64,000 bases of DNA from Alphaproteobacteria bacterium (GCA_033345275.1 JAWPOF010000007.1:100636-164635), one strand, 5' to 3'; counted from the stretch's first letter, positions 15,325 to 59,862 are shown. Numbers and translations are program-made. The notes: generated by a model not told the origin, from the sequence alone.

Positions 15325-15334
15325 TCAAAACAAT

Positions 15335-15480: not shown

Positions 15481-15509
15481 AATCAAACCCAGACACAAAA
15501 ACTCTATTG

Positions 15510-15770: not shown

Positions 15771-15828
15771 TACTTATTGAAATAATCATGGTATATTGCG
15801 GTATAATGAATAACAAAAAGAGCACGCT

Positions 15829-18534: not shown

Positions 18535-19430
18535 TTTTTTATTTCCATTATAATTTTAAATATAGCTGTCTCTGGTTCCAGATACACATTCTTTATATCC
18601 GCAATCGCGCGTGTTGCATTTGGATACAAATCCGCCAGCCCAAAATACGCAATCGAATCCAATAAAATTCCGTACAGTTCAGGGTGTGGCGCGATTTTGC
18701 GCGCTAATGCCATAATATCCGAACTGCTGCTGTGTTTGTTTCCAAGCTTTTCGATAAGTTCTGCATAAATAACATCCCCACCAGACTTTTTCAAATTTGC
18801 GATTTTTCCAAAACTGCCGTTTGCTAATCGCAATGTCTCGGTGTTAATTTCGTCTTCGGGCATAAACTTTACGCACAGTTCCCGCAACTGAGCAATCGTC
18901 AACGGTCGCATTTTTTCCACACGTGCGCGTGAACGCACCGTTGGCAATACATTAGACAATTGATGAACGACTAATAAAAATAATGTTTTTGCAGGCGGTT
19001 CTTCCAGTAATTTCAGGATAGCATTTGATGCAAATGTATTCAATTGATCGACCGAGTCAATCAGAATCACCCTCCAATCCCCAGACATAGACGACATCTG
19101 CATTTTATCAATCATCGCGCGCACGGTGTACACAGAAATCACTTTGCCATCTGTTTTAAGATTGCCTTGCTTGTCAATGTTTCTGTCTATATCCACAATA
19201 AAGAAATCACCGACATTCCCATATACCATTTTGGCGATTTTATAAGCCAAAGTTGCCTTACCAATTCCCATCGGCCCAGTCAATATCCACACGGGATGCA
19301 CTGGATGCAAGTCTCGCTGATTCCAAGCATTCATAAAATTACGCCATGTATCAGCATGACCAACTAAATGTTCGTTATCCATCGGGTGTGGAAAATTATA
19401 TTCGTTCAAAGCCTTTTTACGCGGTGCCAT
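18525..19430 (-). CDS. holB: DNA polymerase III delta-prime subunit
   Basis: Degenerate AAA+ P-loop GPMGIGKATLAYKIA, SRC-like motif; overlaps tatD by 10 nt (operon). Confidence 0.7.
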   Translation of the reverse strand: MAPRKKALNEYNFPHPMDNEHLVGHADTWRNFMNAWNQRDLHPVHPVWILTGPMGIGKATLAYKIAKMVYGNVGDFFIVDIDRNIDKQGNLKTDGKVISVYTVRAMIDKMQMSSMSGDWRVILIDSVDQLNTFASNAILKLLEEPPAKTLFLLVVHQLSNVLPTVRSRARVEKMRPLTIAQLRELCVKFMPEDEINTETLRLANGSFGKIANLKKSGGDVIYAELIEKLGNKHSSSSDIMALARKIAPHPELYGILLDSIAYFGLADLYPNATRAIADIKNVYLEPETAIFKIIMEIKKCL

Positions 19431-22313: not shown

Positions 22314-22404
22314 GGAGATGTCGCATAGTTGGTCTAGTGCGCTACATTGGAAATGTAGTATACCCGCAAGGGTATCAAGGGTTCGAATCCCTTCATCTCC
22401 GCCA
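22314..22404 (+). tRNA. tRNA-Ser (anticodon GGA), class II
   Basis: GGAGATG acceptor, anticodon stem CTACA/TGTAG with loop TTGGAAA, long variable arm, T-arm GGGTTCGAATCCC, CTCCGCCA 3' end. Confidence 0.85.
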
Positions 22405-35458: not shown

Positions 35459-37894
35459 ATGAGCATTAAACACTTCTCTGTAAATTTGGGAAATGCGGAA
35501 AACGGAACTCCAGTTATTAAGAACCTAAATGACTTGCGTTCAATTTATGTTGCAGGGGGTGGCGGCAAAAGCCGATTTTTAACAAGTTTTATCATCTCAT
35601 TGGTAGAAAATACACCAGCAGAAGAGATAAGTGTTGTAATGTGCAATCCTCGAAGAGCTGATTGGGACCTGTGTTGGGGCGATCTGCCACATGTGTCAAT
35701 TGCAGACAAAGAGCAAACATTAGATTGCCTCCAAAACATTGTCGCTGAAATTGAAAAAAGAAAGACTATGGGCGAGGATTTATTATACCTGCCAAAACGT
35801 TTTGTATTTATTGGTGATACCTATGATTTAATGAATAATGAAAAGAAACGCATTGTTGATTATATAAAGACAATAGCTACACAGGGACCAGACGTTGGGA
35901 TTTATTCATTGGTCACAGGATATCCCTGGATGATAGATAGTAACTATATAACACAGGATATTATAGACTGCTTCGATACTAAAATCCTATTCCAGGCCGA
36001 TGCCGGCAAGAATGATTATAAGATGTTGTTTGGTGACGAAGAATTTTCCAAAACACCCATTCCGACTGACGAAAAGAGAGGCGGTGATCTGCACGGAAAT
36101 GCAGCAATGATGGAAAAAAATGGCGATAAGACAAGGTTCATTATTAACTATGAAGATAAGAGAGATAATGCGAGGACGATATTTAAACTGTTTGGGGATT
36201 ATCATAAAAGCTATCAGTATGACCGGTTTGTAATGCAAAAAGCCGGATACCATATTCAAAGTATGGCCAGGAAACATAATCTGGAAACACCGAAAGATTT
36301 CACATTTATAAAGACAGAAAGATTGTATCCTGCATTTGACGATATGAATTTCAGATATAAAAACAAGATGTTCTCGATATTGTTTGATGTTATTCTGAAT
36401 GGCAAATCAAAACTGGAGGAATACAGAAAATATAAGCACATTCATATGGCGAAGAATAATAATATGATTCCCGTTGTATTCCCCATATTGGTAGATTTTC
36501 CTATGGAACATGGACCACATGGATATGGAATTTATGTTGGCCCAGACAGAAGAGTCAAAACAACATATAATGTGAAAGACAAGGATAGTTGGAATCTGTT
36601 TGATGCAGAAACAGGCGAACCTATTGACCCATTGGCGATAGCTGATGATGCGGCAGTAAAAATGTCCAGATATGAACAGGAAAACTTTGCCGTTCAAATA
36701 GCGTGCAACCTTATAAAGGAAAAAGGCGGCGGTCTGATACAGGTATCAGACAATGCAAGTCATATACCACAAATTGTATTTAGGACCAATACAGGACAGC
36801 TTCAATGGTGTGCGGTTTCTGTAACAGATGAAGACTGGGATGAAACCAAAGGTTCATGGTTAGGGGACAGTCAATCAATAATAGATGGTAATCGTTACAT
36901 AAGTAAGGTCATGACAGAAGAAAACGGTATGTTTCTTCATGTTTACATAGAGAATTCAGAAAGGGGCGGAAAGATTCATTACAAGTACAAATCAATCGAT
37001 GTACCCAGAGGAGTAAAGTGGAATAATCTACTCAGAAATGAATATACAAAGTGGCAAAATTTGGTGACTGGTGCGGATGAATCAGAAATGGGCTACACAT
37101 ACGTGGATGTAATTACAGCAAAAGAAACTGTAACATTCAAAATGCTGGAACCTCAAACAGACGAACAATCTGCAAGAGGGTTATCCCAGTTCAATCAAAT
37201 ACTCGAAAAAACTGGAATGATATATTTTTCCACCAATCCTAGGGAACCAGGACATCCGTGTTTTCAAGCAAATATGAACACGGCAAACACAAAGTTCCCA
37301 GTTGACTTCCTGTTTATAGATTGGTGTGGCAACATAATTCAGATAGATAAGAATGTTCCAGCTCTGTCATCAGAAATACACACCGCATCTAATGTAGTGG
37401 CAGTGATGGAAATCAATGCTGGCGAATGTGACAAGTATGGCATAGAGGTTGGCGATAGCGTAATACATGAAAAACTGCGCATACGACCTGGGAATAAAGT
37501 CCTCTATAAAGAGATGATGTTTGATAAGCTCACAGAGAGAACCCTGGACAGGATTAACCCAGAAGACATCATGTTCTTTGCGATTGCCGAGGGCGGCGCA
37601 ATGGGCTGGGCTGGTGCTATCCAGATTATAACCAAGAACAAGGACGGTATAGGTCTGTATTTTATCGACTACACAACATTCAAGGATTTAACAAGTATAG
37701 AGAAATTATTCCCACCGGTTAAATGGGTTGAAACCAACACAGTTGGCAACAAAGACTGGTTTATGAAGCCGATGGGTTTTGGGAATCATCTCATACTGAG
37801 AACAGAGTATTATGAAGAATTCAATGATTTGATTAAGGGGAAACATGTCTATAAGGAATGGCTAAATGTAGCAATAGAAATACTTTCAGAATAA
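35459..37894 (+). CDS. large FtsK/SpoIIIE-like protein: degenerate motor domain (aa 30-230) + about 570-aa extension of unknown function
   Basis: YVAGGGGKSRFL (Walker A), ISVVMCNPRRADWDL..LPHV, RFVFIGDTYDLM (Walker B with DT instead of DE), GIYSLVTGYP. Confidence 0.55.
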   Translation: MSIKHFSVNLGNAENGTPVIKNLNDLRSIYVAGGGGKSRFLTSFIISLVENTPAEEISVVMCNPRRADWDLCWGDLPHVSIADKEQTLDCLQNIVAEIEKRKTMGEDLLYLPKRFVFIGDTYDLMNNEKKRIVDYIKTIATQGPDVGIYSLVTGYPWMIDSNYITQDIIDCFDTKILFQADAGKNDYKMLFGDEEFSKTPIPTDEKRGGDLHGNAAMMEKNGDKTRFIINYEDKRDNARTIFKLFGDYHKSYQYDRFVMQKAGYHIQSMARKHNLETPKDFTFIKTERLYPAFDDMNFRYKNKMFSILFDVILNGKSKLEEYRKYKHIHMAKNNNMIPVVFPILVDFPMEHGPHGYGIYVGPDRRVKTTYNVKDKDSWNLFDAETGEPIDPLAIADDAAVKMSRYEQENFAVQIACNLIKEKGGGLIQVSDNASHIPQIVFRTNTGQLQWCAVSVTDEDWDETKGSWLGDSQSIIDGNRYISKVMTEENGMFLHVYIENSERGGKIHYKYKSIDVPRGVKWNNLLRNEYTKWQNLVTGADESEMGYTYVDVITAKETVTFKMLEPQTDEQSARGLSQFNQILEKTGMIYFSTNPREPGHPCFQANMNTANTKFPVDFLFIDWCGNIIQIDKNVPALSSEIHTASNVVAVMEINAGECDKYGIEVGDSVIHEKLRIRPGNKVLYKEMMFDKLTERTLDRINPEDIMFFAIAEGGAMGWAGAIQIITKNKDGIGLYFIDYTTFKDLTSIEKLFPPVKWVETNTVGNKDWFMKPMGFGNHLILRTEYYEEFNDLIKGKHVYKEWLNVAIEILSE

Positions 37895-37917
37895 AACGCA
37901 GAACAAAGGAGGTAGCA

Positions 37918-39018
37918 ATGAATGTGATAATGAAAGGCAAAGAATGGCTAAAAACAGGAAATAACTCGCTATGGGTTGCTACGGCAGTAATGATAGCAAT
38001 TGGGACGATTGCGATTTATCTGCTGGCTCCATTTCAGGATGTGCGCATAGGATTACCACAGGGCTTTTTGTTCGGACGATATCTGCCATATCTGATATTT
38101 GGAATCATAATGATGGTTGGATGCAGCAAGATGTCCAAGAAATTCATGATCAAGTTCAGCTACATACTGGGGGCGTTTGGATGTTTCTTAATGCTGATTA
38201 CCATGGTTGAACCACACATAATTCGTGGTGCAGCTCGATACGTTCCTCTGTTTGGTGTTGTGAACATTGATCCTTTTATGATGACTTTGCCAGCATACAT
38301 TGTACTGATGTCCAACTGGCTGAGCAAAGAAACAACCAAGGAGAAGAAATTCAGGATATGGTTAGGATGCTCTGCAATAACAGTTTTTATCATGTTTACT
38401 GCGATCATGGCCCCATATATGATAATTGCAGCAGCCTATGCCTTGGTATTCCTTGTAATGTCGATACAAACGCGCAAGAATATGCCTATGGCATTCTACA
38501 CATCAATTGCGCTGGGGTTGGGATTGGTAGCAGCTTTTTCATATAGTGTACTAACAAATAGCTATATGCATGCCAGATTGGAACACATTATGTATGGCAC
38601 CAGCTACACAGTTCAGGCAGCAAAGGCAGTTATACATTCCAGCAGTTTGATAGGTTCAAACCCAGAATCAATCCAGGCCCTGACAAACCTGCCAGATGTC
38701 CCAACTGACTTTATGTTTGCCGGTATCGTGGGTAAGATGGGGTATTTGATGGGGGCTTTGGTCCTTATGCTGTACATATGGGCATCGACATCAATATACA
38801 GAACCACACAAAACGCAAGCCAGTTTAGAAAGCTGTTGGGTGCTGGTGTCCTTACCGTGTTTATTTTCGGATTCTTCGGGAACATGGACACATCGATTGG
38901 GGGATTACAACACGCAAGCTACCTGCCATTTATGTCATGCAGCTGGAATGCGCTGCTGTCATTTTGCATCATGTTTGGCTTCCTGTTGGGTCAGAAGGTA
39001 GATGGTTCAAAAGTATAG
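37918..39018 (+). CDS. divergent SEDS-family (FtsW/RodA/SpoVE)-like polytopic membrane protein
   Basis: About 10 TM segments; C-terminal block LPDVPTDFMFAGIVGKMGYLMG...ASQFRKLLGAGVL...NMDTSIGGLQHASYLPFMSCSW aligns to the FtsW block [21 protein letters not shown]...LPTKGLTLPLISYGGSS. RGAARYVPLFGV..IDPFMM aligns to the GAKRWI..G..IQPSEF block. Confidence 0.5.
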   Translation: MNVIMKGKEWLKTGNNSLWVATAVMIAIGTIAIYLLAPFQDVRIGLPQGFLFGRYLPYLIFGIIMMVGCSKMSKKFMIKFSYILGAFGCFLMLITMVEPHIIRGAARYVPLFGVVNIDPFMMTLPAYIVLMSNWLSKETTKEKKFRIWLGCSAITVFIMFTAIMAPYMIIAAAYALVFLVMSIQTRKNMPMAFYTSIALGLGLVAAFSYSVLTNSYMHARLEHIMYGTSYTVQAAKAVIHSSSLIGSNPESIQALTNLPDVPTDFMFAGIVGKMGYLMGALVLMLYIWASTSIYRTTQNASQFRKLLGAGVLTVFIFGFFGNMDTSIGGLQHASYLPFMSCSWNALLSFCIMFGFLLGQKVDGSKV

Positions 39019-39183
39019 GTGCGCTTTTGTTACGCTATTGAAAAAAGAGGATTAAATTACTATAATAATCTAAAGTGAGGATATAAAATGGTGCAATCTA
39101 TTGAAATTAATCCGAATTTATCTGGTTTTTTGTCATCGTTTAGAGAAAAAAGTTGGAATTAGTATGTGATAAATCGTACTATG

Positions 39184-39197
39184 TTCATACTCCGCCA
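39184..39197 (+). repeat. att-core-like copy of the tRNA-Ser 3' end (ttcatactccgcca)
   Basis: 13 of 14 nt match cttcatctccgcca at 22391-22404; embedded in a ~100-bp element also present at 49255-49400. Confidence 0.5.
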
Positions 39198-39295
39198 CAA
39201 AAATCAAACGCCCGATATGGGCGTTTTATTTTTGTGCCGAAATAAGGGGCTCCCCCAACAAGCCACGATAGTGGTGGGGGGCAAAGAGTAGGTCT

Positions 39296-41929
39296 TTACT
39301 GAGTTGATTCCAGCTGTCCCAGGATTATATCACTCACAGACAGTTCGTCTGCAATTACATATGATATTGCATCTTTTGCTACTGTGCCAACGTTATACAG
39401 ATCCGTTTGAGCCTGTTTTATTATATTTATAACCTTGGCAGGTGCACTAATTTTGATGTTTGTTACCGGGGTTTTTAGGCTAACATTAGCATTTGTTTTT
39501 TCTTTCCTAATTTCGCTACTTATTACACTCAGCGCATCATACAATTCAGTGCTTTCTGCTATTTTGTTATCAAAATCTTCCATTTTTGGCCATGGCTCTA
39601 AATGGATTGTTTTTCCTTTGGCCCAACTGCACGCCTGATAGATTTCTTCTGTTACAAACGGACAGAATGGTGCAAATAGCTTAACGAAAGTATCAAGCGA
39701 GAACATCAATGCATTAATAGCAGATTTATTGTCAGAGTTGTATGCTCGTCCTTTTACAATTTCAAGATAGTTATTGCAGAAATCCCAGAAGGCTTTTTCA
39801 ATAATATCCAAGGCCTGTGCGTAATCATTTTGTGCAAAACTTTTACTAGCTCCTTTTACTGCATCAGACAATTTTTTTAACCAAGATTTATCTGTTGGCT
39901 CTATAATATTCGACTTGTAGTCATCTTTGATATTGATGTGTGCGTTTTCGACAATGTTCAGAACGAATTTACTGGCGTTAAAGATTTTTGTAACCAGTTT
40001 CTTGCCTTGTTCCATTATTTGTTCTTCAAAAACTGCATCAGCTCCCAATTTTGCCCTAGAAGCCCAATAACGTACCGCATCAGACGAGTATTTAACTATT
40101 AAATTCATCGGGGTAATTACATTGCCTTTAGATTTACTCATTTTCTTGCGGTCTGGATCCATGATAAATCCGCTGATAAAGCAACGTTTCCACGGAATTG
40201 TGTTTTCGTGCAACAATGCCTTGGCAATGGTATAAAACGCCCAGGTTCTGATTATGTCGTGTGATTGTGGTCTGACATCAAACGGCAAAGACAGATTTGT
40301 TTTGTCGGATGCACAATTTATCGCAATTTGTGGTGTCAACGAAGAAGTTGCCCATGTGTCCATAACGTCTTTGTCACCAACAAAACCATTTGGTTGTCCA
40401 CGTTGTTCTTCGGTATATCCTGTTGGAACATCAGACATCGGATCGACCGGCAGGTCTTCTTTACGTGCAAAAATAGGATTGTTATAGTCAACATTGCCAT
40501 TTTCATTAATTGGATACCACACCGGGAACGGTACGCCAAAGAAACGCTGGCGACTGATGCACCAGTCTTGGTTCAATCCTTTGGTCCAGTTTTCATATCT
40601 GCTGTGCATGTGTGCAGGGAACCAATCAATCTTATTTCCAGCGTCAATCATACGTTCTTTTTCTTGCATCAAACTGATGAACCATTGTCTGGACGACACA
40701 AATTCCAGGGGTAATGCACCTTTTTCATAAAATTTAACAGGGTGCACAATTTCCTTTAAGTCGCCTTTCAAGGTGCCGTCCTCTTTTAGCATTTCAACAA
40801 TTTTGTCTTGTGCTTCTTTGATTGTTAATCCTGCGATTTTATTAAAGTTTCGTTGTGCTTTTTCTTTGTTTAGTGTGACAAATGCACCTTCACCATATAC
40901 AATGTTCGCGATTTTACCATCTTTGCCAATAATCTGTTTAATTGGCAAACCGGATTGCTTCCACCATTGCACATCGGTAATATCGCCAAATGTACAAACC
41001 ATCATTATGCCAGTGCCTTTGTCCATTTCTGCGTTTTCAGACGGTACGATTGGCACAGGGATGTCAAACAACGGAGTGATAGCATTTTTACCAAAGAACT
41101 TTTTATATCTTTCGTCTGCCGGGTTTGCAACAATTGCTATACAAGCTGGTAATAACACAGGGCGTGTTGTTGCGATAATAAAAGTATCTTCTTCGCCTTC
41201 GACCTTGAACTCAATATCGTGAAAATAACCTTTTACTTCGCGATCTTCTATTTCTGCCTGGGCGATTGCAGATTGGAAAGTGATATCCCACATTGTTGGA
41301 GCTTCAACAGATTGTGCCATGCCTGCAGCAACCAAATCCAAGAAAGAAGCTTGGGATATTGCGATTGAATCTTTGCCAATGGTCGAATATTGTAAATCCC
41401 AATCATAAGAATTGCCAATCTTTTTAAAAATTTCTTCAAAAATCTTTTCATCTTCTTTGGTCAGAATTTCACAAGCTTCTATAAAATTCTTTCTAGAAAC
41501 TTCAATACGATCTGACATGTCACCTGGATTATGAACAGGTTTGAAATTTGGGTTGTATGGAACGGATGGATTGCATGCGATGTTATAATAATTTTGTACA
41601 CGTCTTTCCGTCGGCAATCCATTGTCGTCCCAACCAATTGGAAAGAAAATGTTTTTGCCAGACATTCTTTGGAATCTTGCTACTACGTCTGTTTGAACAT
41701 AACTGAATATGTGGCCAATATGCAAAGACCCCGACACTGTTGGGGGCGGTGTATCAATCATATAAGTATCCCCCCTGGGGGTGTTTGGATTGTATTTATA
41801 AACCTCATTGTCTGCCCAAAATTTTATACATCTTTGTTCAATCTCTTCAAAATTAATTTTTTTGTCCAAAGATTTTTGTTCTTTATATGTCATAGTAAGA
41901 TCCATTCTAAATTCTATTGTTTGTCTCAA
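39296..41929 (-). CDS. valS: valyl-tRNA synthetase, short archaeal/rickettsial-type (877 aa, no bacterial C-terminal coiled-coil)
   Basis: PPPTVSGSLHIGH (HIGH) and KMSKSKGN motifs; editing-domain insertion; ValRS-like N-terminus. Confidence 0.8.
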   Translation of the reverse strand: MRQTIEFRMDLTMTYKEQKSLDKKINFEEIEQRCIKFWADNEVYKYNPNTPRGDTYMIDTPPPTVSGSLHIGHIFSYVQTDVVARFQRMSGKNIFFPIGWDDNGLPTERRVQNYYNIACNPSVPYNPNFKPVHNPGDMSDRIEVSRKNFIEACEILTKEDEKIFEEIFKKIGNSYDWDLQYSTIGKDSIAISQASFLDLVAAGMAQSVEAPTMWDITFQSAIAQAEIEDREVKGYFHDIEFKVEGEEDTFIIATTRPVLLPACIAIVANPADERYKKFFGKNAITPLFDIPVPIVPSENAEMDKGTGIMMVCTFGDITDVQWWKQSGLPIKQIIGKDGKIANIVYGEGAFVTLNKEKAQRNFNKIAGLTIKEAQDKIVEMLKEDGTLKGDLKEIVHPVKFYEKGALPLEFVSSRQWFISLMQEKERMIDAGNKIDWFPAHMHSRYENWTKGLNQDWCISRQRFFGVPFPVWYPINENGNVDYNNPIFARKEDLPVDPMSDVPTGYTEEQRGQPNGFVGDKDVMDTWATSSLTPQIAINCASDKTNLSLPFDVRPQSHDIIRTWAFYTIAKALLHENTIPWKRCFISGFIMDPDRKKMSKSKGNVITPMNLIVKYSSDAVRYWASRAKLGADAVFEEQIMEQGKKLVTKIFNASKFVLNIVENAHINIKDDYKSNIIEPTDKSWLKKLSDAVKGASKSFAQNDYAQALDIIEKAFWDFCNNYLEIVKGRAYNSDNKSAINALMFSLDTFVKLFAPFCPFVTEEIYQACSWAKGKTIHLEPWPKMEDFDNKIAESTELYDALSVISSEIRKEKTNANVSLKTPVTNIKISAPAKVINIIKQAQTDLYNVGTVAKDAISYVIADELSVSDIILGQLESTQ

Positions 41930-42021
41930 AGTTTCCGTTAATTCTACAAAAAAAAAGCCCTAACGCAAGCAATAAATTGTCTGCAACGTCTTGACAAACA
42001 ATAATTTTAAGGAGACGATTT

Positions 42022-43233
42022 ATGGGTTCTAGCGTACGTTTTATAAATCGTATAACAAACGACTTTCCTATGTTATCAAGGAATGTCAATGGAACAAGAC
42101 TTGTTTATCTAGATAGTGCAGCGACCTCATTAAAACCGAATAAAGTCATATCCAAAATCAATAATTTTTATAATTCCAGTACATCAAATGTGTATCGTGG
42201 GACCTCTGTTTTATCAGAAGAAACAACATTGGAGTTTAACGAAGTTAGATGCAAAGTAGCAGATTTTATTGGTGCAAATCATCAAGAAGTAATATTTACA
42301 TCTGGTGCCACAGATTCTATAAATAAATTAAGTTTGATGCTTGGTTTGAAAGAAAATGATGTTGTTTTGACTACGTTGTTGGAACATCATTCCAATTTTT
42401 TACCGTGGCAATGTCGGGCAAAAACGAAAATAATCAAGCTTGATATAAATGGAAATATTGATATCGATAATCTGGAACGGGCGATAGATGCGAATACAAA
42501 ATTGGTTGCTTTCAGTTTTGCTTCTAATGTAACAGGGAATATACAGGATGTTCGTAAAATTGTAGAAGTGTGTAAAAAACATTCCGTTTTATCATTGGTG
42601 GACGCAACTCAGGTCGCAGGACACATAAGTTTTAATGTCAAAGACATCGATTGTGATTTTCTTGTTTTTTCGGCTCATAAAATGTTAGGACCCTCAGGTG
42701 TTGGGGTTTTATATGTTCACAACAGAAATTTTCCCAACTTATTGCCGGCCTTCTATGGGGGTGGTATGGTGGATAAAATAACTGGTTCCGAAGTTAAATA
42801 CAAAGTTCCGCCATTTTGTTTTGAGTCAGGAACCCCAAACATAGAAGGGGTCTTGGGTTTTGGGGGGGCAATAGATTATATCAATGAAATAGGTTTACAC
42901 AATGTACATAAATATCTGGAAGAAATTGATAGTTATCTAATTTCTCAAATTCAAACATTGCCCAAAATTATTCTGCCGTTTAAGATATCAAAAACGCATC
43001 TGCCGAATTTAACGTTTTGTTTGAAAAACACTGGTGTTGACATTGGGTATTTAGCTAGGGTACTGTCGGATACTTATGGTATAGTGTTAAATACGGGCTA
43101 TCAGTGTTGTCAACCATTATATAACAATTACGGCATAAATGGAGGAATACGGGTTTCCTGTTATTTGTATAATACAAAGCAAGACATAGACTGTTTAATA
43201 AATGCGTTAAAAGATTTGGAGTTTATGCTATGA
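42022..43233 (+). CDS. cysteine desulfurase-like PLP enzyme (aminotransferase class V, SufS/CsdA-like)
   Basis: SAHKMLGPSGVGVLYV PLP-lysine motif and GYQCCQPL catalytic-cysteine loop (cf. SufS GHHCAQPL). Confidence 0.7.
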   Translation: MGSSVRFINRITNDFPMLSRNVNGTRLVYLDSAATSLKPNKVISKINNFYNSSTSNVYRGTSVLSEETTLEFNEVRCKVADFIGANHQEVIFTSGATDSINKLSLMLGLKENDVVLTTLLEHHSNFLPWQCRAKTKIIKLDINGNIDIDNLERAIDANTKLVAFSFASNVTGNIQDVRKIVEVCKKHSVLSLVDATQVAGHISFNVKDIDCDFLVFSAHKMLGPSGVGVLYVHNRNFPNLLPAFYGGGMVDKITGSEVKYKVPPFCFESGTPNIEGVLGFGGAIDYINEIGLHNVHKYLEEIDSYLISQIQTLPKIILPFKISKTHLPNLTFCLKNTGVDIGYLARVLSDTYGIVLNTGYQCCQPLYNNYGINGGIRVSCYLYNTKQDIDCLINALKDLEFML

Positions 43234-44126
43234 TAAAAAATAGGCTAATTAATATAGAGTCTTCTTCTTTTTGTAATGCGAATTGCGCCATGTGTCCGCG
43301 TGATGTGATAAAAGAAAAAGGACATATGAGTCCTGCTATGGCTAGCATTATTGCACAAAAAATAAAAGATGTTCCCAACATATACGAAGTTTCTATTTCA
43401 GGCAGGGGAGAACCGAGTCTGAACCCAAATATTGAAAAGCTGCTAGAAATTTTCTCTTCCCTGCCTAACTTGGCATTGGTTACAACAGGGACTCGTGTTA
43501 ATGATAGTATATTAGAAGCTTTAAATAAATACGTATCTAAATTGCGACTGTCCATCAGTTCCCTGGCCCCAGACATTTTTCAAAAAGTGCACACAACGTT
43601 GGATTATAACAAAGTGTGGGGCAATATTGAAAATATTATTCAAACTTATGACAAGAATAAGATAGTTATTCATCTTGTTGGTGGGCCGGTGATTTATCCG
43701 GGGTTGGAACAGACGATAGCGTTCTTCAAAGAACGTGGTGTTGATAATATTAAACTGTTCCCGTTATGGAACAGGGGGGGCAGCAAATCCCAGAACTCTG
43801 AACAGCTTCTGCGTTATAGTTTAATAGATAAGTATGGATTAATTGCGCCAGAAAGCGACTATTTGTCAAAAAGCGAACTAGAAAGCATTCAAAACAAGCC
43901 TGATTTTTGTCCCGTTGGTGATTCCAGTTTGTGCATAAATTTCAAAGGGGAAATAGTTGGCTGCTTCCAAGATTTTGCCTATGATAATATTGTTGGAAAA
44001 ATTACTGATGATACACTGGATATAAACAATCTGTTATTAACCAGAAGGGCTATTTTAGGCAAAATGAATGTTTGCAAAAAATGTAATTCATTTCGTGAAT
44101 TGGTAGGTAAAAATGCTCAGCGATAA
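43230..44126 (+). CDS. radical SAM enzyme with C-terminal SPASM/twitch-like Cys cluster
   Basis: CNANCAMC (Cx3Cx2C), GRGEPSL, and C-terminal CPVGDSSLC...GC...CKKC. Confidence 0.7.
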   Translation: MIKNRLINIESSSFCNANCAMCPRDVIKEKGHMSPAMASIIAQKIKDVPNIYEVSISGRGEPSLNPNIEKLLEIFSSLPNLALVTTGTRVNDSILEALNKYVSKLRLSISSLAPDIFQKVHTTLDYNKVWGNIENIIQTYDKNKIVIHLVGGPVIYPGLEQTIAFFKERGVDNIKLFPLWNRGGSKSQNSEQLLRYSLIDKYGLIAPESDYLSKSELESIQNKPDFCPVGDSSLCINFKGEIVGCFQDFAYDNIVGKITDDTLDINNLLLTRRAILGKMNVCKKCNSFRELVGKNAQR

Positions 44127-45456
44127 TGATGTAAAGCAAGAATTACATAGGCTGTTTTTGTCCGTCCCTGCTACGAACCTACATAATGTCGGAATAGAAA
44201 TAGAGCTATCCATTGTAAGCAAAGAAGAAGACTATTCCGGCGATCATAGTCATGACCTGCAAAATTTTATAATAAATCATCTAAACTTTATACAGCTCTT
44301 TCCTGATAAACTAATATTTAGACACAAGACAGAAAAAGATATTATTTCCTTTGAATACAGTATCAATACCCTAGAGTTTTCAATGGAAAAATCCGATAGT
44401 TTAATGAAGATCAAAAAACGTTTTTTGGGTTATTATGATGCACTGCAAAATTTCATGAAAACTAAAAATCTTATGTTGTGCGGTTGTGGTTTGCATCCGC
44501 ATTGGCAAAAAATAAATACGCGAGCATTGGAATTGCCACATTATCAATTGACAGAGTATTATTTAGCACAGGGGGCTAAGGAATCGTATTTGCATAATCA
44601 TGATGATTTTTGTGCGTATTCATGTGCAGTACAAACACACATTGATATAAATCATAGTATTCCAGAACTTTTAAACATATATTCATTTTTAGGTTGTATC
44701 AAAGGATTCCTGTTTTCAAATTCTGTTGACCTGACCCAAACATGTGACTTCCAAGGAATGGCATGCGTCAGGGACTATTTATGGTGGCACAGCATGTTTG
44801 CGTTTTGTTCAGAGAATGTTGGCTATTATCACGATATAAAAACAAATGATGATATTATCGACAATATGTTGCAACGCAGTATGTATTATGTTTGTCGCGA
44901 TAATGAATACCTATATATTGGACCGTACAAACTTGCTGAATACTTTTCTAAAGACAGCGTGCTTGCATATAATATATTTACAGGCAATAAAACAACATTG
45001 TCGCCACAGATTACAGATTTACAGTATTTTCGTTCATACAAGGCAATAGAACTAACAAAGCGTCATACCATAGAAATCCGTGATGATTGTCAACAGCCTG
45101 TTTATGATACCTTTGGTCCATGTGCATTTAATCTTGGTATATCAGAGGCTCTGCCCGAAGCATACTCTTTGATAGACAAACTTTGTAAAGATATGAGAAT
45201 AGATTTCTATAATTTTATAAACAATCGTAGGTTGTCAACGTCTCTTAACCCAATGCTAAGTGAGTTTGTCCTAGATAAGTGGCGTATTTATTGCAGAGAA
45301 TTTGTCTTGATTGCACGTAAGGGGTTGCAGAAAAGAAATCTGGGTGAAGAAGAATTATTAGATAGTGTTTTGAAACGACACGACATCTTAGAAAACCCTG
45401 CAAAAGTCGCGTACAAAAAATGGCACTGTGATAATGTGTTACTTGGTATAGATTAA
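44113..45456 (+). CDS. carboxylate-amine ligase, glutamate-cysteine ligase family 2 (GCS2/YbdK-like)
   Basis: VGIEIELSIV N-terminal motif; about 450 aa; overlaps the rSAM stop. Confidence 0.5.
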   Translation: MLSDNDVKQELHRLFLSVPATNLHNVGIEIELSIVSKEEDYSGDHSHDLQNFIINHLNFIQLFPDKLIFRHKTEKDIISFEYSINTLEFSMEKSDSLMKIKKRFLGYYDALQNFMKTKNLMLCGCGLHPHWQKINTRALELPHYQLTEYYLAQGAKESYLHNHDDFCAYSCAVQTHIDINHSIPELLNIYSFLGCIKGFLFSNSVDLTQTCDFQGMACVRDYLWWHSMFAFCSENVGYYHDIKTNDDIIDNMLQRSMYYVCRDNEYLYIGPYKLAEYFSKDSVLAYNIFTGNKTTLSPQITDLQYFRSYKAIELTKRHTIEIRDDCQQPVYDTFGPCAFNLGISEALPEAYSLIDKLCKDMRIDFYNFINNRRLSTSLNPMLSEFVLDKWRIYCREFVLIARKGLQKRNLGEEELLDSVLKRHDILENPAKVAYKKWHCDNVLLGID

Positions 45457-45475
45457 CAGAAAAAAGGAAAATCTT

Positions 45476-46411
45476 ATGAAAAAAGTTGGTTTATGGTTTT
45501 ATCGTAATGATGGCGGCCAAAAGGTGTTAACAAAACTGATCGCAGAATTACAAAACAGGGGTTATGAGGTAATTTCTGATTTTGATATGAGAAAATGCTA
45601 TATTCTTAATGGTAAAGTGTATACTGCAGATGGGTATAATCTTTCTGCGTTAGATGCTTTTTATCACATGAATGCCGATGAACAAAACCAATTTCAAAAT
45701 GATATTTTAAATGTTTTAAGCAAATCAAACGTAAAGGTATTTAATCATTATGATGCTTTTAGTGTTGCCAAAGACAAAATGCTTGCAAATAGCCTTTTGC
45801 GTGATTCTGGTCTATCTGTTCCACCATCATTATTTATTGGGGCTGAGTTCGATAAAAATATAATAAAGCAAGTATTTAGCGACTGGAAAAAGGTTGTTTT
45901 GAAACCACGCCGAAATCATGGAGGAAAGGGTATATTAATGTTTGATGATTATGAAAAATTTGACGACTTTTGTCAGGCGACTAAGGGATTCTATAATGAT
46001 TATTATTTAGAAAAGTTCATAGAATTTGGAACTCATGATTATCGTATAGAGGTATTTGATGGCAAGGTCATAGGTGGGTATAGCCGTCAAAGAACCCATG
46101 CCTTTAAAACAAATATTAGTTCTGGTGGGCAGCATATTTATATTCCTGTGAACAAAGAGTGCGAAGATATTGCATTAAAAGCTGCCGCCTCTATTGGTAT
46201 AACTACGACTATTGTAGATATGATAAAATCTGTTGAAGATAACCAATATTATATTCTAGAAGTCAATCCGATTATGGGGATTTTTTTAGAGTCTGCAATT
46301 TCTTCGGGGGAAAGGTTCCCAGCACCAGACATCATAGAACAACAACTTTGCTCGGATGGAACCAAAATAAAGTGTATTGCAGATTATTTTGATAAAATTT
46401 TGTTTAATTAA
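45476..46411 (+). CDS. ATP-grasp ligase, RimK/glutathione-synthetase-like
   Basis: KPRRNHGGKGI, HDYRIEVFDGKVIGGYSRQ, ILEVNP ATP-grasp motifs. Confidence 0.65.
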   Translation: MKKVGLWFYRNDGGQKVLTKLIAELQNRGYEVISDFDMRKCYILNGKVYTADGYNLSALDAFYHMNADEQNQFQNDILNVLSKSNVKVFNHYDAFSVAKDKMLANSLLRDSGLSVPPSLFIGAEFDKNIIKQVFSDWKKVVLKPRRNHGGKGILMFDDYEKFDDFCQATKGFYNDYYLEKFIEFGTHDYRIEVFDGKVIGGYSRQRTHAFKTNISSGGQHIYIPVNKECEDIALKAAASIGITTTIVDMIKSVEDNQYYILEVNPIMGIFLESAISSGERFPAPDIIEQQLCSDGTKIKCIADYFDKILFN

Positions 46412-46427
46412 AACAAGGAGGGAACAT

Positions 46428-47177
46428 ATGTCATTAGATAGCCCGATATTTATCGCAGTGTCATCTTGTAATGCTAATGTGGACATAAATTTTTCAAGGT
46501 CGCAGCGTCTTTCTTATGTGTCCGATGCTTATGTTAGATTAATTTCGGATTATGGGGCAGTACCATTGATTATTCCATCCAACATTGGGATTGAACACAT
46601 TGATGGGGTTGCTTCTATTTGTCATGGATTGCTGTTGTTGGGCGGTCCTGATATTTCTTCAGATTTATCATGTGCCGTTCCTGGGGGTGCAATAGATGCC
46701 ATTAATAAATCAGATAGCAAGCGAGATGATTTTGAGCTGGCGTTGTATAAATCGTTTGTTTCTTACAATAAGCCTGTTTTAGGAATTTGTCGTGGTATGC
46801 AAATCATAAATGTCGCCCATGGCGGAACGTTGGTTCAAAATCTTGACACGTCGCTAAATCATTATATAGAAAGCGATGGTTGGATAAACTACCACGAAAT
46901 AAAAATAGTTACAAAGACAAAGGTATATGAACTAATGAATTGTGATAAGTATGTGACCTCATCCATTCATCATCAAGGCATAGATAAGTTAGGTGATAAA
47001 TTGAAGGTGGCTGCATATTCTGAAGATGGGGTGATCGAAATGATAGAATCAGAAGATAAAAACCGCTTTGTCATCGGAATACAGGGACACCCAGAAAAAA
47101 CAAGAACAAATTTGCCAAAATACGAAACCATATTTAGTGAATTTATTAAAACCGCAGGAAAACATAATGAACAATAG
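46428..47177 (+). CDS. class I glutamine-amidotransferase-like gamma-glutamyl hydrolase (peptidase C26, PuuD-like)
   Basis: GICRGMQ nucleophile elbow, HHQ and QGHPE; start at the internal Met with aaggaggg RBS. Confidence 0.65.
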   Translation: MSLDSPIFIAVSSCNANVDINFSRSQRLSYVSDAYVRLISDYGAVPLIIPSNIGIEHIDGVASICHGLLLLGGPDISSDLSCAVPGGAIDAINKSDSKRDDFELALYKSFVSYNKPVLGICRGMQIINVAHGGTLVQNLDTSLNHYIESDGWINYHEIKIVTKTKVYELMNCDKYVTSSIHHQGIDKLGDKLKVAAYSEDGVIEMIESEDKNRFVIGIQGHPEKTRTNLPKYETIFSEFIKTAGKHNEQ

Positions 47178-48351
47178 TTATCTCGATCTAAAATTATATA
47201 AAGATTTATATTCAAATACGGTGGCACAAAAAAATCAAATGGGTATACCTTATTTGTTTAAGCAAGATATCGTACGCGGCTTTCCGCTTAATTTTATGAC
47301 CCAACGCCTTAAACAGTTAATAGCCGAAGATAAAATAGAATATACAACAACATCTGGTACGACATCGGATAGAATGCAAATCATGCGAAACAAGGGCTGG
47401 TGGCAAAATGAATATATCAGAACTTATAAAAACCATCCGCTTTTGCATAAAGTTATACAAGACAAATTGCCAAAGGCAATTTTGACGACAGCCATTTGTT
47501 CAAATACAGTGTGTTATTTAAATACGCCGTCTTATGAAGAACGCATAATAAATGGTACTTTATATCTTAATTACCAACATAATCCATGGGATTGGACCAA
47601 AGAAGATATTTTACAGATTATAGACGAAATGAAACGTTTTAATGTCTATTATTTAGATGTTGATCCTATTTATTTTTATATATTCTTGTATAAAATGAAA
47701 CAATACAATATTACTAAACCATTGCCACAACCCAAAGTGATGACACTTAGTTATGAATATTCTCCAATCAGTATAACATCATACATAAAGCAGACCATGT
47801 CTTGTCCGGTACTTGATTTATACGGCACAACAGAGTTTGGCTATGTTTTTTTGACAAACCAAGATGGCGAGTTGGCGTTATGCCCTGAATTGTTGGATGT
47901 GGATTTTATCCAAATTGAAAACGCAGATAATCTTTACGAATTGGTAATTTCGTCATTTAAGAACGAGCATATGCCACTTATAAATTATCGTATGGGCGAC
48001 ATAGTTGAAATGACTAAAAATCAATATGATAAATTCAAAGAACATGGGATTATCACTAGAATAGCAGGAAGAACAAAAAATCTTATAAAAAACAATGGTA
48101 AAACTATTGTAGTATCAACAATAGATGACATTATTAGCAAATATAAAACAATTGCTTTTTATCAACTGTCTATAATTAGCAATAAGCGTTACAATATAAA
48201 ATTGTTGTTACATCCGGACGCTTATTTATCTGTTGTTGAACTAAATAGTTTGAATCAAGAATTACAGGATTTATTGTGTGGAGATGTTGATTGCTCTATA
48301 GGTGAAACGATAGCTCCAGAAATGTCAGGGAAATTTGCTCTTATAAAATAA
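47167..48351 (+). CDS. adenylate-forming enzyme, PaaK/CapK/F390-synthetase-like
   Basis: TSGTTSDR adenylation core motif; overlaps the upstream stop by 11 nt. Confidence 0.55.
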   Translation: MNNSYLDLKLYKDLYSNTVAQKNQMGIPYLFKQDIVRGFPLNFMTQRLKQLIAEDKIEYTTTSGTTSDRMQIMRNKGWWQNEYIRTYKNHPLLHKVIQDKLPKAILTTAICSNTVCYLNTPSYEERIINGTLYLNYQHNPWDWTKEDILQIIDEMKRFNVYYLDVDPIYFYIFLYKMKQYNITKPLPQPKVMTLSYEYSPISITSYIKQTMSCPVLDLYGTTEFGYVFLTNQDGELALCPELLDVDFIQIENADNLYELVISSFKNEHMPLINYRMGDIVEMTKNQYDKFKEHGIITRIAGRTKNLIKNNGKTIVVSTIDDIISKYKTIAFYQLSIISNKRYNIKLLLHPDAYLSVVELNSLNQELQDLLCGDVDCSIGETIAPEMSGKFALIK

Positions 48352-48413
48352 ATGCAAAAATCCCTGTAAATTCCCTGTAAAAGCGGAATTTGTATGTGGT
48401 TCTTCGTATTGTA

Positions 48414-48427
48414 TTCATACTCCGCCA
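48414..48427 (+). repeat. att-core-like copy of the tRNA-Ser 3' end (ttcatactccgcca)
   Basis: Identical to the 39184 copy. Confidence 0.45.
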
Positions 48428-48575
48428 GTAATATTGAACATCCCGTGGTAATCCCACGGGTTGTTCTTTTTCGCCCCGTTTCCGGCAGTTTTTATGGGTG
48501 ACATTACCTGCGTATATCACCGTCCGCGCCAAATCCGCCCAACACCACTGCAACTATATAACTTGCCCAAAAATG

Positions 48576-49172
48576 TTATGCCCGTTTTGGGTAGTTTTTG
48601 TGTTCTTTCAAATAATCTGAATATAGTTTTGACCATGTCATTAAATCATAAAATTTTTTGTTCATATAAACTGCCTGTCTAGAAACGCCATCTAAAATAA
48701 AACCAGTTTGTTCAGCTAGCTTTGCAGAATCTTTATTTTCTACAATATTTACACGCATGATTTTATTAACCTTTAGTTTATTAAATGCGATTTCTTCTAT
48801 AGCGCGGTATGATTCTGCGGCAAAACCATGACCACGAGCATTTGATAGCAACCATACGGTGTTTAATTTTAATGATAGGTTCTCTTTATAAAAAGATATT
48901 TTTCGGACGCCGATGAACTGACTATTATGAAATATATAAAATATACATGCATCGTTTTTTTCGCTTTCTGCATGATATTGCATCATTTTCAAGGTATCAG
49001 AGACAGATGTTGGCAGTATTTTTGGGGTTTTCATCAAAGGTTCATATTTATAATCTTGTGGATTTTCATTTTTTAACGCAGCAAATATGATTTTTGCATT
49101 TTGTATATTAGGTTCTAAATGTTTTAACACTAATCTTGCAGAGCGTAAATCTTTTGAAAAATATTTTATCAT
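48576..49172 (-). CDS. GNAT N-acetyltransferase, RimJ/RimL-like
   Basis: 198 aa; NARGHGFAAE acetyl-CoA motif. Confidence 0.65.
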   Translation of the reverse strand: MIKYFSKDLRSARLVLKHLEPNIQNAKIIFAALKNENPQDYKYEPLMKTPKILPTSVSDTLKMMQYHAESEKNDACIFYIFHNSQFIGVRKISFYKENLSLKLNTVWLLSNARGHGFAAESYRAIEEIAFNKLKVNKIMRVNIVENKDSAKLAEQTGFILDGVSRQAVYMNKKFYDLMTWSKLYSDYLKEHKNYPKRA

Positions 49173-49460
49173 GAAAGCACCTTTAGTTCATTTGATTATT
49201 ATAAAAAAACTTTATTTGGGCAATATATTTGTATACAATCCATACACAACAGATATCTAATACCGTCATTTATTACGATTCCGCCACAAAAATAAAACGC
49301 CCCATTGTTGGGCGTTTTATTTTTGTGCCGAAATCGGGGTTTGAACCCGGTAAAGCCACGATAGTGGCGTGGGTTCGACAATGAGTAGGTTTTGCAAACA
49401 TAGTGTAGCAAAACCGTCATGAATGCCCCACAGCCCCGCCATCCGCGGGGCGAGGGAATA

Positions 49461-49474
49461 CTTCATCTCCGCCA
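49461..49474 (+). repeat. exact direct repeat of the tRNA-Ser 3' end (cttcatctccgcca), candidate attR, followed by ~150 bp homologous to 22615-22760
   Basis: 14/14 match to 22391-22404; the downstream block gaaataat.aaaccc..acaa.atctgtcg...ccactttttc.ccgcgaagttacc.gtatgtacaa.gaagttatcaaataatcgaata.ccccaccacttacatacaa is shared. Confidence 0.7.
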
Positions 49475-49671
49475 GAAATAATTAAACCCTCGACAATATC
49501 TGTCGATGGTTTATTTTTAGCCGGAAATCCGCCACTTTTTCACCGCGAAGTTACCGGTATGTACAATGAAGTTATCAAATAATCGAATATCCCCACCACT
49601 TACATACAATGGTTAAAATAGAGATGTCAAAAAAAGAAAAAGCCGCATATAATCCGGCATTAGATTCTAGG

Positions 49672-50046
49672 TTATAACTGATTTTCTTTTGCAAGTTTAT
49701 ATATATCGTTTATATTAATCTGTTGTTTGCCCGACAGGATCTTATTTACAATTTCTGGGTTCATGTACGCCACCTCTAAACATCGGTACACATGGCGCAG
49801 GGCGACATGTTCGGCGCGGCCAATTGAATCTACATCACCACCCTGTTCATACATCTCGCGATACCGCCACGCGGCGACGAACGCCTTCAATATCAGGTGG
49901 TTGTTTTCTGTAATGCTAAGCGTGCCGTTACGTCCACCACCAAATCTGGTGTTGGCATATCGGCGCAGCACAACTGGTCGCATTGAATATAGTACCACAA
50001 CGAACGGTTTTGTCGTTTGAACGGGTGGGGCGAATATTTTGCCCAT
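49672..50046 (-). pseudogene. serine recombinase remnant (C-terminal ~100 aa only)
   Basis: Homologous to the C-terminus of 23912-25501 (VVLRRYANTRF.GGRNGTLSITENNHLILKAF...). The catalytic N-terminus is removed by a deletion joined at the aaccggtcg microhomology. Confidence 0.7.
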
Positions 50047-51929: not shown

Positions 51930-52403
51930 ATGTCAGAACGTGCAATGTTTAAGGGTGTAATAAACCTGATTATAAAAAAAGACGACAAAGTCTTGTTATT
52001 CTTTCGCAATGATGGATTTTTTAACTATGATGGTGGTTGGTGGGTTCTGCCGGCAGGACACATAGAGCATGGAGAAACCGCACGTGCCGCCGCCATACGA
52101 GAGGCCAAAGAAGAACTGGATATCGACATTGCGCCCGACGACATCAAATGCGTACACGTCACCAGCAATCTGGCCAGTCGCACAGAATCTTTTGATTTCT
52201 TTTTCGAGGTGTCAAAATACACCGGCACAATTCGCAACTGCGAAGGGGACAAGTGTGCCGATATGCAATATTTCACATTGGACGAAGTCACCAAATTGAA
52301 GAACGTTGTTTCAACAACCCGTATTTCATTGGCGGGATTGGCGCGTGGCGAAATATATTCCGAATGTAAATCGTATCGCAGTGAATCAAAGGATACAAAA
52401 TGA
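51930..52403 (+). CDS. NUDIX hydrolase
   Basis: GHIEHGETARAAAIREAKEELDI Nudix box. Confidence 0.65.
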   Translation: MSERAMFKGVINLIIKKDDKVLLFFRNDGFFNYDGGWWVLPAGHIEHGETARAAAIREAKEELDIDIAPDDIKCVHVTSNLASRTESFDFFFEVSKYTGTIRNCEGDKCADMQYFTLDEVTKLKNVVSTTRISLAGLARGEIYSECKSYRSESKDTK

Positions 52404-59439: not shown

Positions 59440-59565
59440 AATGTTGTTGTCAGATCTAATTAAACCTACAAAATTAAAACCTGGAGATACTGTTGCTGTA
59501 ATCTCTCCTTCATGGGCGGGGGCTTCTGTATATCCAGAACGTTATTTGGCAGGCAAGAAACAGTA
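59440..59565 (+). pseudogene. LD-carboxypeptidase (LdcA/MccF, S66) N-terminal fragment
   Basis: MLLSDLIKPTKLKPGDTVAVISPSWAGAS then stop; matches the S66 N-terminal PGD.I..IAPS motif. Confidence 0.4.
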
Positions 59566-59862
59566 AGTAGGTTGAACGACATCATTGCTATAAAATGCCC
59601 CGGCTTAAAATGTCGGGTCAAGACGTTATCAAGTAGAAAATCAGACGAAAAATTTGAACGTATAGGCCTAAAAAATCTTGTTCAAAAGGACAGAAAATGA
59701 CGAAAATATGTTGTGACATCAAACGTTCGGCCTGTCAGTATTGTCTGTGTGCGTCAGATAAAAAATCCGTAAATGCCAGACAAAATTAAGGCTTGAAAAT
59801 TTGCTGTTTGGGGGGTAATATAAGCTGAATTAGTTCCATTAATACGGCATATAGGGCAAAAA

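Follow-up and report, generated by a model that had tools for sequence, protein, structure and literature searches.

What does a rare operon of six enzyme genes make, and why does it lie beside a gene for valyl-tRNA synthetase (ValRS)? The question is raised by a stretch of 64,000 nucleotides (nt) from a metagenome-assembled Alphaproteobacteria bacterium (GCA_033345275.1, JAWPOF010000007.1:100636-164635), hereafter the window, in which the operon occupies positions 42022-48351 and the valS gene diverges from it. With confidence just short of even, we propose that this horizontally spread cassette is functionally tied to ValRS and produces a small metabolite that contains sulfur, resembles an amino acid or peptide and is probably exported, most likely an antimetabolite or inhibitor of that enzyme, and that the linked valS is, or supplies, the insensitive target. 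At the level of sequence, we could establish the enzyme families with their intact catalytic residues, the conservation of the six-gene set across phyla, and a linkage to valS that includes, in one clade, an extra ValRS embedded in the operon. The product and its mechanism would follow from these as set out below.

The operon and its six enzymes

The genes, the control region and the terminator with which the analysis is concerned are the following (the source proteins are MDW2975003-MDW2975009).

39296-41929, minus strand: valS, valyl-tRNA synthetase of the archaeal-like alt_ValS type (NF000540, 1105 bits against a cut-off of 900)
41930-42021, no strand: divergent control region between valS and the operon, by consensus matches only
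42022-43233, plus strand: SufS-like class-V pyridoxal-phosphate (PLP) cysteine desulfurase (PF00266, Aminotran_5, E 1e-107; TIGR01979, 400.9 bits)
43230-44126, plus strand: radical S-adenosylmethionine (SAM) enzyme with a twitch-like C-terminal auxiliary-cluster Cys motif (PF04055)
44113-45456, plus strand: divergent homologue of the plant-type (group 3) glutamate-cysteine ligase (GCL), a carboxylate-amine ligase (family profile)
45476-46411, plus strand: RimK-family ATP-grasp amino-acid ligase (PF08443)
46428-47177, plus strand: gamma-glutamyl amidohydrolase of C26/class-I GATase fold, PuuD/SpuA type (PF07722, E 5.5e-50)
47167-48351, plus strand: PaaK-fold adenylate-forming enzyme (AFE), a ligase of CapK_C type (motifs and fold)
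48442-48470, plus strand: intrinsic-terminator-like hairpin (48442-48460) with a T-run, at the end of the operon

All six cassette genes share one orientation and are densely packed, with overlaps or gaps of at most 19 nt. An earlier reading of the window alone (the original prediction) had described seven tightly packed, co-oriented genes, and was right about the packing and the orientation but not about the number. The open reading frame (ORF) of the C26 gene opens at a TTG at 46377, and the ATG at 46428 is chosen by gene callers; that of the AFE gene opens at a TTG at 47068, with the gene placed at 47167-48351. A promoter-like TTGTCT-17-AATAAT (41977-42005) precedes the operon and an AAGGAG ribosome-binding site precedes the ATG at 42022, both as consensus matches, and the control region contains an imperfect inverted repeat (41915-41943 and 41975-42003). 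The divergent valS lies 93-129 nt upstream. The best explanation is that 42022-48351 is a single operon. Across the whole window, Rfam recognised only five tRNAs.

Each enzyme was judged by its score against curated equivalog cut-offs (NCBIfam/TIGR models), together with Pfam, profile and structure matches. Every one of the six enzyme families originally proposed is upheld by domain, profile or structure matches, and all six proteins fall under the cut-off of every equivalog model, in agreement with the earlier statement that no housekeeping pathway could be named for them. The desulfurase reaches 400.9 bits on TIGR01979 against a cut-off of 475.1. Its Cys362 (the first Cys of the QC.QP loop), the PLP-binding Lys220 and His123 are invariant among 16 cluster homologues, and these are the residues of the SufS-type (group II) desulfurase mechanism (K220, H123, C362). 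Because the Lys, His123 and the QC.QP Cys do not vary, the protein is predicted to be a persulfide-forming desulfurase and not a C-S lyase. A role in SUF iron-sulfur assembly was considered and rejected, the SufS score being below the cut-off and the neighbouring genes including no Suf scaffold or acceptor.

The radical SAM protein carries the CX3CX2C motif as C15x3C19x2C22 and four conserved C-terminal cysteines (C227..G240x4C245..C282xxC285) that match the single auxiliary cluster of a twitch domain. Pfam detects PF04055 alone, without a SPASM match, and among solved proteins the twitch-domain dehydrogenase BtrN is nearest (E 1e-12); the C-terminal Cys cluster seen at the outset is real, but it fits a twitch rather than a SPASM domain. 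A single-sequence AlphaFold model (pLDDT 41) was too poor for a fold search. The GCL-like protein is very rare, with 16 relatives or clusters among 5.8 billion proteins, and is not matched by Pfam at default settings; its homology to GCL emerges only at the level of the family profile, which matches the plant enzyme from end to end (2gwc/6gmo, E 4e-21). At the distant locus L106, by contrast, the counterpart qualifies as a true GCL (TIGR01436, 516 bits, cut-off 463). Among named models, the ATP-grasp ligase is nearest to MptN (108 bits), RimK (TIGR00768, 101 bits), LysX and CofF, all below their cut-offs, and among solved proteins to alpha-L-glutamate ligase, LysX and RimK.

The C26 protein matches Lin1909, 7d4r and PuuD, and its triad C121/H221/E223 is invariant. 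No Pfam family matches the AFE copy in the window. Its motifs TSGTT, YGTTE, GRxK and SGKF are conserved, and a confident AlphaFold model (pLDDT 90.8) has the PaaK fold, with BT_0428 (E 9e-19, TM 0.72), ClxA, PaaK1 and NatL2/AjiA1 as the best Foldseek matches. The features of the PaaK/ANL superfamily, namely the P-loop TSGTT, YGxTE and the C-terminal Lys motifs, all invariant, and a two-domain fold, are all found in it. It also has an invariant CSNxxC motif (C111, C116), placed in a low-confidence loop of the model. A PADLOC search for defence systems gave no assignment, only generic DndA/SspA matches to the desulfurase and a weak pVip match to the radical SAM protein.

Twitch- or SPASM-type radical SAM enzymes and ATP-grasp ligases are known from pathways to peptides that are made on the ribosome and modified after translation (RiPPs), and the radical SAM protein weakly matches peptide maturases, so that a RiPP-like product, in which these enzymes would modify a ribosomal precursor peptide, had been entertained from the start. 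We regard it as scarcely credible. Within the operon the gaps of at most 19 nt are against a precursor gene, and a comparison of the window with the loci L004 and L006 revealed neither conserved small ORFs nor conserved flanks, in line with the failure to find a precursor by eye when the window was first read. Also, neither RRE nor SPASM Pfam domains were found, and small molecules are the substrates of GCL-like, C26 and PaaK-fold enzymes.

Distribution of the cassette and its linkage to valS

The six-gene set recurs in a sister alphaproteobacterial lineage (L004/L094) at 57-73% identity, in L006 at 40-59%, and at 32-53% in metagenome-assembled genomes (MAGs) of Bacilli and Clostridia, in Enterococcus sp. 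UD-01 and in Stigmatella aurantiaca DW4/3-1. It is also present in a common human-gut organism (the L114 group) and on environmental contigs. The AFE accounts for 108 clusters among the 5.8 billion proteins. In all cases the C26 gene lies directly upstream of the AFE gene, and in P0177 the two are fused. Gene order is otherwise variable, the AFE gene usually being followed by that of the desulfurase, and cyclic permutation converts the window's order into that of the Firmicutes.

Accessory genes differ between carriers. Anaerobes have U32-family proteins and DAHP synthase (the latter in the L092 clade), and aerobes have P450, JmjC and biopterin-type hydroxylases. Other lineage-specific accessories are extra radical SAM enzymes (one of them B12-binding) and DdaF-like and other ATP-grasp ligases. 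Transporters near the cassette (MFS/Bcr, POT, ABC, ABC-2) are likewise lineage-specific, and transposases flank it. With such variable tailoring and transporter genes, the cassette is best classed as a predicted natural-product cluster family, not as a housekeeping pathway. The comparison also supports the view that it behaves as a horizontally spread biosynthetic unit. The window and L004 have only the valS-plus-cassette unit in common, and their flanks differ.

A plasmid collection contained no true member of the cassette. The sole match was a gene pair on Rhizobium binae plasmid p6 (L157, NZ_CP071610.1, 204648-207355), where a distant PaaK-like gene (23.5% identical) overlaps the start of a SufS-like gene whose class-V PLP product is 35% identical to the window desulfurase and retains the catalytic Cys. 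This suggests a minimal module of adenylating enzyme and desulfurase. Two hypothetical genes adjoin the pair, and the surroundings contain transposases and an ABC-three-component defence system. When a genome collection was scanned with the GCL-like family, mostly solitary GCL-like genes of Streptococcus and Ruminococcus were returned, without the cassette. Many streptococci and rumen Clostridia harbour such solitary homologues, which are about 30% identical (L013-L089, from Streptococcus, Ruminococcus and other genera), and in a Bacteroidales MAG (L008/L012) a GCL-like gene stands directly 3' of a ThiF-family gene, the rest of the cassette being absent.

For the linkage to valS, AFE lineage groups were clustered at >=75% identity (n=20). 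In 11 of these 20 groups the cassette has a ValRS gene no more than 8.2 kb away, mostly within 4 kb, and in several others the flanking DNA was too short to judge. Wherever a class-I aminoacyl-tRNA synthetase (aaRS) gene adjoins the cassette in other lineages, NCBIfam assigns it to ValRS. The valS gene may be divergent upstream, co-oriented upstream, co-oriented downstream or convergent, and the linked enzymes belong to three subtypes (alt_ValS, PRK13208-type and bacterial PRK05729-type) that are 26-40% identical between types. Given these differing arrangements and subtypes, the linkage is not one inherited synteny block, and its occurrence across phyla is judged to exceed what chance would give. 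In the linked enzymes HIGH and KMSKS-type motifs are intact and the equivalog scores are those of full-length proteins. Synteny of valS with folC, as known from Firmicutes, was considered as a trivial explanation and rejected: the linkage is also found in Alphaproteobacteria and Myxococcota, and no folC lies between valS and the cassette at the loci examined.

One clade of gut Firmicutes (L092/L102) carries an extra ValRS gene. Here the cassette is followed, after 114 nt, by an 'a-type' ValRS gene without a T-box, and then by a T-box leader with a 'b-type' ValRS gene; the leader scores 131-149 bits at six loci. The a-type enzymes are 75% identical to each other and 50-56% identical to the b-type, which are 84-88% identical among themselves, and they are full length with the catalytic motifs retained. 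This clade therefore has a second, divergent ValRS besides the T-box-regulated copy, and the a-type enzyme is predicted to be a cluster-specific extra copy outside the amino-acid-starvation (T-box) control of the host. In L102 there is one ValRS gene at either end of the cassette. At L095 (2300-5972), a T-box precedes a fragment of 324 amino acids from a bacterial-type ValRS (49% identical to the L114 enzyme) and then an intact b-type/PRK13208-type ValRS, as if the ancestral valS had been displaced, right beside the cassette, by one of another type. The tie to ValRS that the original prediction had drawn from one locus is borne out more strongly than it could know, since the adjacent aaRS elsewhere is always ValRS and one clade has an extra, T-box-less copy. 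As a separate observation, 5' of the cassette in L092/L102 (e.g., L092 4696-9204) is a conserved group of genes, for a half-size ABC exporter, a NUDIX protein, an Acetyltransf_3 GNAT and a short RelA/SpoT-HD-TGS protein of 476 amino acids, which may also belong to the cluster in this clade.

Clusters that carry a copy of the aaRS target are known for mupirocin (mupM/IleRS), albomycin (abmK/SerRS), agrocin 84 (agnB2/LeuRS) and borrelidin (borO/ThrRS). Like these, the operon described here is tied to one specific aaRS gene, and the L092/L102 clade has its second divergent ValRS inside the operon, outside host T-box control. Unlike these, the putative target is ValRS, the enzyme set matches none of the four pathways, and the window itself shows the lineage-typical valS only. 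We know of no natural product that targets ValRS and of no natural-product cluster directed at it.

Several observations weigh against a ValRS inhibitor with a linked resistant target, beginning with the window's own valS. That gene likely starts at the ATG at 41893 and encodes 865 amino acids with HIGH and KMSKS present, 80% identical to, and syntenic with, the valS of L004. Its median identity to 117 gut-alphaproteobacterial relatives is 61.6%, as compared with 62.3% among the relatives, so it looks like the ordinary alt-type ValRS of its lineage and not a divergent paralogue. Relatives in the lineage carry alt-type valS without the cassette, in unrelated housekeeping contexts, and within the 64-kb window valS is single. 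At conserved columns the window and L004 enzymes have 10 substitutions against 4.5 +/- 2.0 in control pairs (maximum 9), a weak excess on which we build no claim. Further afield, no valS was present in the sampled DNA of 9 of the 20 groups, including the well-covered L006, L011 and L128, and in L096 a tRNA-Val(UAC) gene (19164-19239) directly upstream of the cassette-linked ValRS would fit biosynthetic use of Val-tRNA. To these must be added that the window GCL-like protein scores 22 bits on the model of true GCLs (TIGR01436, cut-off 463), and that the step order and substrates proposed below we infer from family membership only. Base composition is not decisive as to whether valS arrived with the cassette: the GC content at third codon positions (GC3) is 0.27-0.34 in the cassette and 0.347 in valS, and is equally low in 9 of 32 other ORFs of the window.

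The L096 arrangement bears directly on another explanation, that ValRS is a biosynthetic partner and provides Val-AMP or Val-tRNA to be built into the product, for which VlmL in valanimycin and AbmK in albomycin are precedents. The T-box-less extra ValRS co-transcribed with the cassette, the upstream tRNA-Val(UAC), which has no equivalent at the corresponding position in the close relative L018, and the retention of HIGH/KMSKS-type motifs and full-length equivalog scores by all linked enzymes would suit such a role. We nevertheless consider it unlikely: the known families that use aminoacyl-tRNA (Fem/GNAT-type transferases, CDPS, LanB/PEARL) are absent from the conserved core, the only GNAT of the window is a mobile neighbour, and a tRNA would not be required for the ATP-grasp, GCL-like and PaaK-fold ligases to attach free valine.

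The same tRNA gene could equally be taken to mean that the cassette modifies tRNA-Val or ValRS, for instance by producing a thiolated or amino-acid-conjugated wobble position to which the extra ValRS is adapted. A desulfurase, a radical SAM enzyme and an adenylating enzyme together make up a toolkit for tRNA thiolation or methylthiolation. U32-family proteins, which include the prephenate-dependent tRNA ho5U synthase, are accessories at many loci, and DAHP synthase is found in the L092 clade. RNA-binding domains (THUMP, PUA, TRAM) were, however, not detected in the core, the window has neither U32 protein nor DAHP synthase, the spread is very sparse, and exporters, P450/JmjC enzymes and dipeptide-type ligases do not fit, which leaves this explanation very improbable.

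A candidate route and the pathways it resembles

The following route can be proposed from the enzyme families. The GCL-like ligase would form a gamma-glutamyl amide of the gamma-Glu-Cys type, to which the RimK-type ATP-grasp ligase would append a further residue in the fashion of glutathione synthase. The SufS-like desulfurase would deliver persulfide sulfur, and the twitch radical SAM enzyme would carry out an oxygen-independent C-H functionalisation or oxidation. The C26 hydrolase would then strip the gamma-glutamyl handle and hand the freed amine to the adjoining, sometimes fused, PaaK-fold ligase, which would adenylate a carboxylate and form the final amide; alternatively, in this last step, the PaaK-fold ligase and the neighbouring desulfurase would yield a thioacid. 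The carboxylate is possibly that of an aryl acid, because of the structural neighbours of the AFE and the aromatic-precursor genes among the accessories. The finished product would be exported, and the linked ValRS copy would confer immunity, ValRS being the target, since the valS linkage is best explained in this way. Both the product and its mechanism are inferred.

A bolder form of this proposal, which we hold to be doubtful, is that the cassettes make up the first natural family of ValRS-directed antimetabolites, spread widely though at low frequency among gut anaerobes and found in a myxobacterium too, with the logic of a 'gamma-glutamyl-amine amidotransferase' and self-protection by a dedicated or replaced ValRS. 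According to this logic, the GCL-like ligase would park a reactive amine on glutamate, the pair of C26 and PaaK-fold enzymes would release it and transfer it to the adenylated carboxylate, and sulfur would be installed by the dedicated pair of desulfurase and twitch radical SAM enzyme. A literature search on the gene set or on a natural-product cluster targeting ValRS returned nothing relevant. A cluster linked to the relevant aaRS gene is of a known kind; the literature found has no description of this set of enzymes, of specificity for ValRS or of a C26 protein coupled to an adenylating enzyme.

The proposed route resembles several known pathways in part. The warhead of albomycin is a thionucleoside made with the twitch-type radical SAM sulfur-inserting enzyme AbmM, and the cassette is similar in its sulfur chemistry, in having a small auxiliary-cluster radical SAM enzyme and in being an aaRS-linked cluster. 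Unlike albomycin, it is without nucleoside-modifying, carbamoyl- or methyl-transferase genes and without a siderophore NRPS, and the closest solved radical SAM protein is BtrN. As in the benzoxazole pathways, whose PaaK-family AMP ligases (NatL2, AjiA1, ClxA) form amides or esters, the AFE has the PaaK fold (TM about 0.65-0.72) and aromatic-precursor genes (DAHP synthase, aromatic hydroxylases, a Trp/Tyr permease) are found at some cassette loci. It differs from NatL2, AjiA1 and ClxA in its identity of only 13-16%, in its invariant CSNxxC motif, and in its constant pairing with C26 and usual pairing with the desulfurase. The C26 protein itself most resembles the PuuD/SpuA hydrolases and, as in polyamine catabolism by PuuA/PuuD and SpuB/SpuA, is paired with an enzyme that could form gamma-glutamyl amides; here, however, that ligase is of GCL type and not of glutamine-synthetase type, and the context is anabolic, with three ATP-dependent ligases.

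There is also a family resemblance to glutathione and ergothioneine biosynthesis (GshA/GshB; EgtA, EgtC, EgtE), in that one operon holds genes for a homologue of plant-type GCL and an ATP-grasp enzyme, and likewise for a gamma-glutamyl amidohydrolase and an enzyme of the class-V PLP family. This is the ground for supposing an intracellular product, either a cofactor or a low-molecular-weight thiol, like glutathione, ergothioneine or a glutamylated cofactor, and for attributing the position beside valS to regulation or chance synteny; the nearness of the ATP-grasp ligase to the cofactor glutamate ligases MptN and CofF points the same way. The scores are nevertheless all far under the equivalog cut-offs. 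In contrast to GshA and GshB, the cassette reaches only the 22 bits just given on TIGR01436 and 32 bits against 299 on glut_syn, and in contrast to the ergothioneine pathway it lacks homologues of EgtB and EgtD, reaches 73.7 bits on egtE_PLP_lyase (cut-off 400), and retains the persulfide Cys of the desulfurase, a residue for which a C-S lyase has no need. To either set the cassette adds a radical SAM enzyme and a PaaK-fold ligase. The rare and patchy spread (108 AFE and 16 GCL-like clusters among the 5.8 billion proteins), the efflux transporters, transposases and tailoring oxygenases alongside the cassette, and a valS linkage in 11 of 20 groups across phyla that cannot be chance also speak against an intracellular cofactor or thiol, and we rate such a product as rather improbable.

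Surroundings of the operon and significance of the cassette

Beyond the operon terminator lies a GNAT gene, bracketed by two partial copies of a repeat that also occurs on the far side of valS.

48576-49172, minus strand: RimL-like GNAT (Acetyltransf_3; PF13302)
39155-39280, no strand: left copy of the repeat, about 125 nt, containing a bidirectional terminator hairpin (39206-39226)
48385-48439, no strand: right copy A (first half of the repeat), 76% identical to 39155-39209
49276-49373, no strand: right copy B (second half of the repeat), 92-94% identical to 39191-39280

These features had suggested a microcin-C-like aminoacyl-nucleotide antibiotic on an att-flanked island, with immunity through an MccE-like GNAT and an MccF-like peptidase. 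It is true that a RimL-like GNAT adjoins the operon, that a direct repeat flanks valS, cassette and GNAT, and that NUDIX genes recur near the valS-cassette unit in the window and in L004. The GNAT, however, is found at 100% protein identity in several cluster-free genomic contexts (L146-L151); in L146 it lies between rpoZ and a gene for 354 amino acids, at a site that is occupied here by tRNA-Ser(GGA) (22314-22404). L004 (the sister locus at 57% identity), L006 and other cassette loci lack it, and it shows no homology to the GNATs near other clusters. We read it as, in all probability, a separate mobile cassette that neighbours the operon and not a conserved part of it, and the proposed MccE-like immunity is not supported.

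The 14-mer TTCATACTCCGCCA, present at 39184 and 48414, is indeed common to both sites and belongs to the element of about 125 nt, which the window contains three times and no more. An att role is not borne out: the left copy and right copy B have the same terminator-like hairpin, the terminator-like hairpin of the operon itself comes after copy A, copies A and B lie on either side of the GNAT gene, and no integrase gene was identified beside the repeats among the cluster-flanking ORFs, which were the only ones scanned. In the repeat/GNAT region (48340-49700), Rfam found nothing credible. The repeats may mark where the GNAT cassette was inserted, or may be copies of a repeat that is dispersed between genes. 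The supposed MccF-like fragment is an ORF of 41 amino acids resembling the N-terminus of an LD-carboxypeptidase (S66/MccF-like), at 59441-59566 in a 1-kb gap before argS (59863-61602); it appears to be a pseudogene remnant, about 11 kb from the cluster, and lends no support. Moreover, none of the six proteins matches an MccB/ThiF-type (E1) enzyme, and no precursor ORF is conserved. The microcin-C-like model is in our opinion largely refuted and highly improbable. The wider suggestion of an aminoacyl-adenylate mimic is a conjecture, the conserved six-gene core including no nucleoside-handling enzyme.

Other parts of the window are noted in their own right. Between 50410 and 54465 are genes of nucleotide metabolism, for three NUDIX hydrolases (one ASCH-fused), a CYTH protein, a small P-loop kinase-like protein and a PNP_UDP_1 phosphorylase; the NUDIX protein at 51930-52403 has a 66%-identical orthologue in L004, 2.3 kb from valS, and L092 also has a NUDIX gene near the cassette. 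A protein of 811 amino acids (35459-37894) combines a weak FtsK/SpoIIIE-like N-terminal region with DUF192, an unusual architecture, and its gene overlaps the start of an FtsW/RodA-family gene (37858-39018). The Cys-rich repeat protein of 667 amino acids encoded at 56784-58787, with a signal-like hydrophobic segment at the N-terminus and Ephrin-receptor-like and Listeria-Bacteroides repeats, is probably a surface protein. A second low-GC patch at 10092-16431 (GC3 0.22-0.35, several genes) may be another accessory region.

Inhibitors of aaRSs are validated antibiotics, mupirocin being an example, and a cassette linked to valS across phyla is a testable lead to a new compound class and a new resistance determinant. 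It may also lead to unusual enzymology, in the coupling of a gamma-glutamyl hydrolase to an adenylating ligase and in the pairing of a desulfurase with a radical SAM enzyme. Two carriers, Stigmatella aurantiaca DW4/3-1 and Enterococcus sp. UD-01, are cultured, which makes direct experiments feasible. Finally, the linkage may have a bearing on the atypical ValRS types that some lineages possess, as at L095, where a truncated bacterial-type valS behind a T-box is followed by an intact ValRS of the other type.

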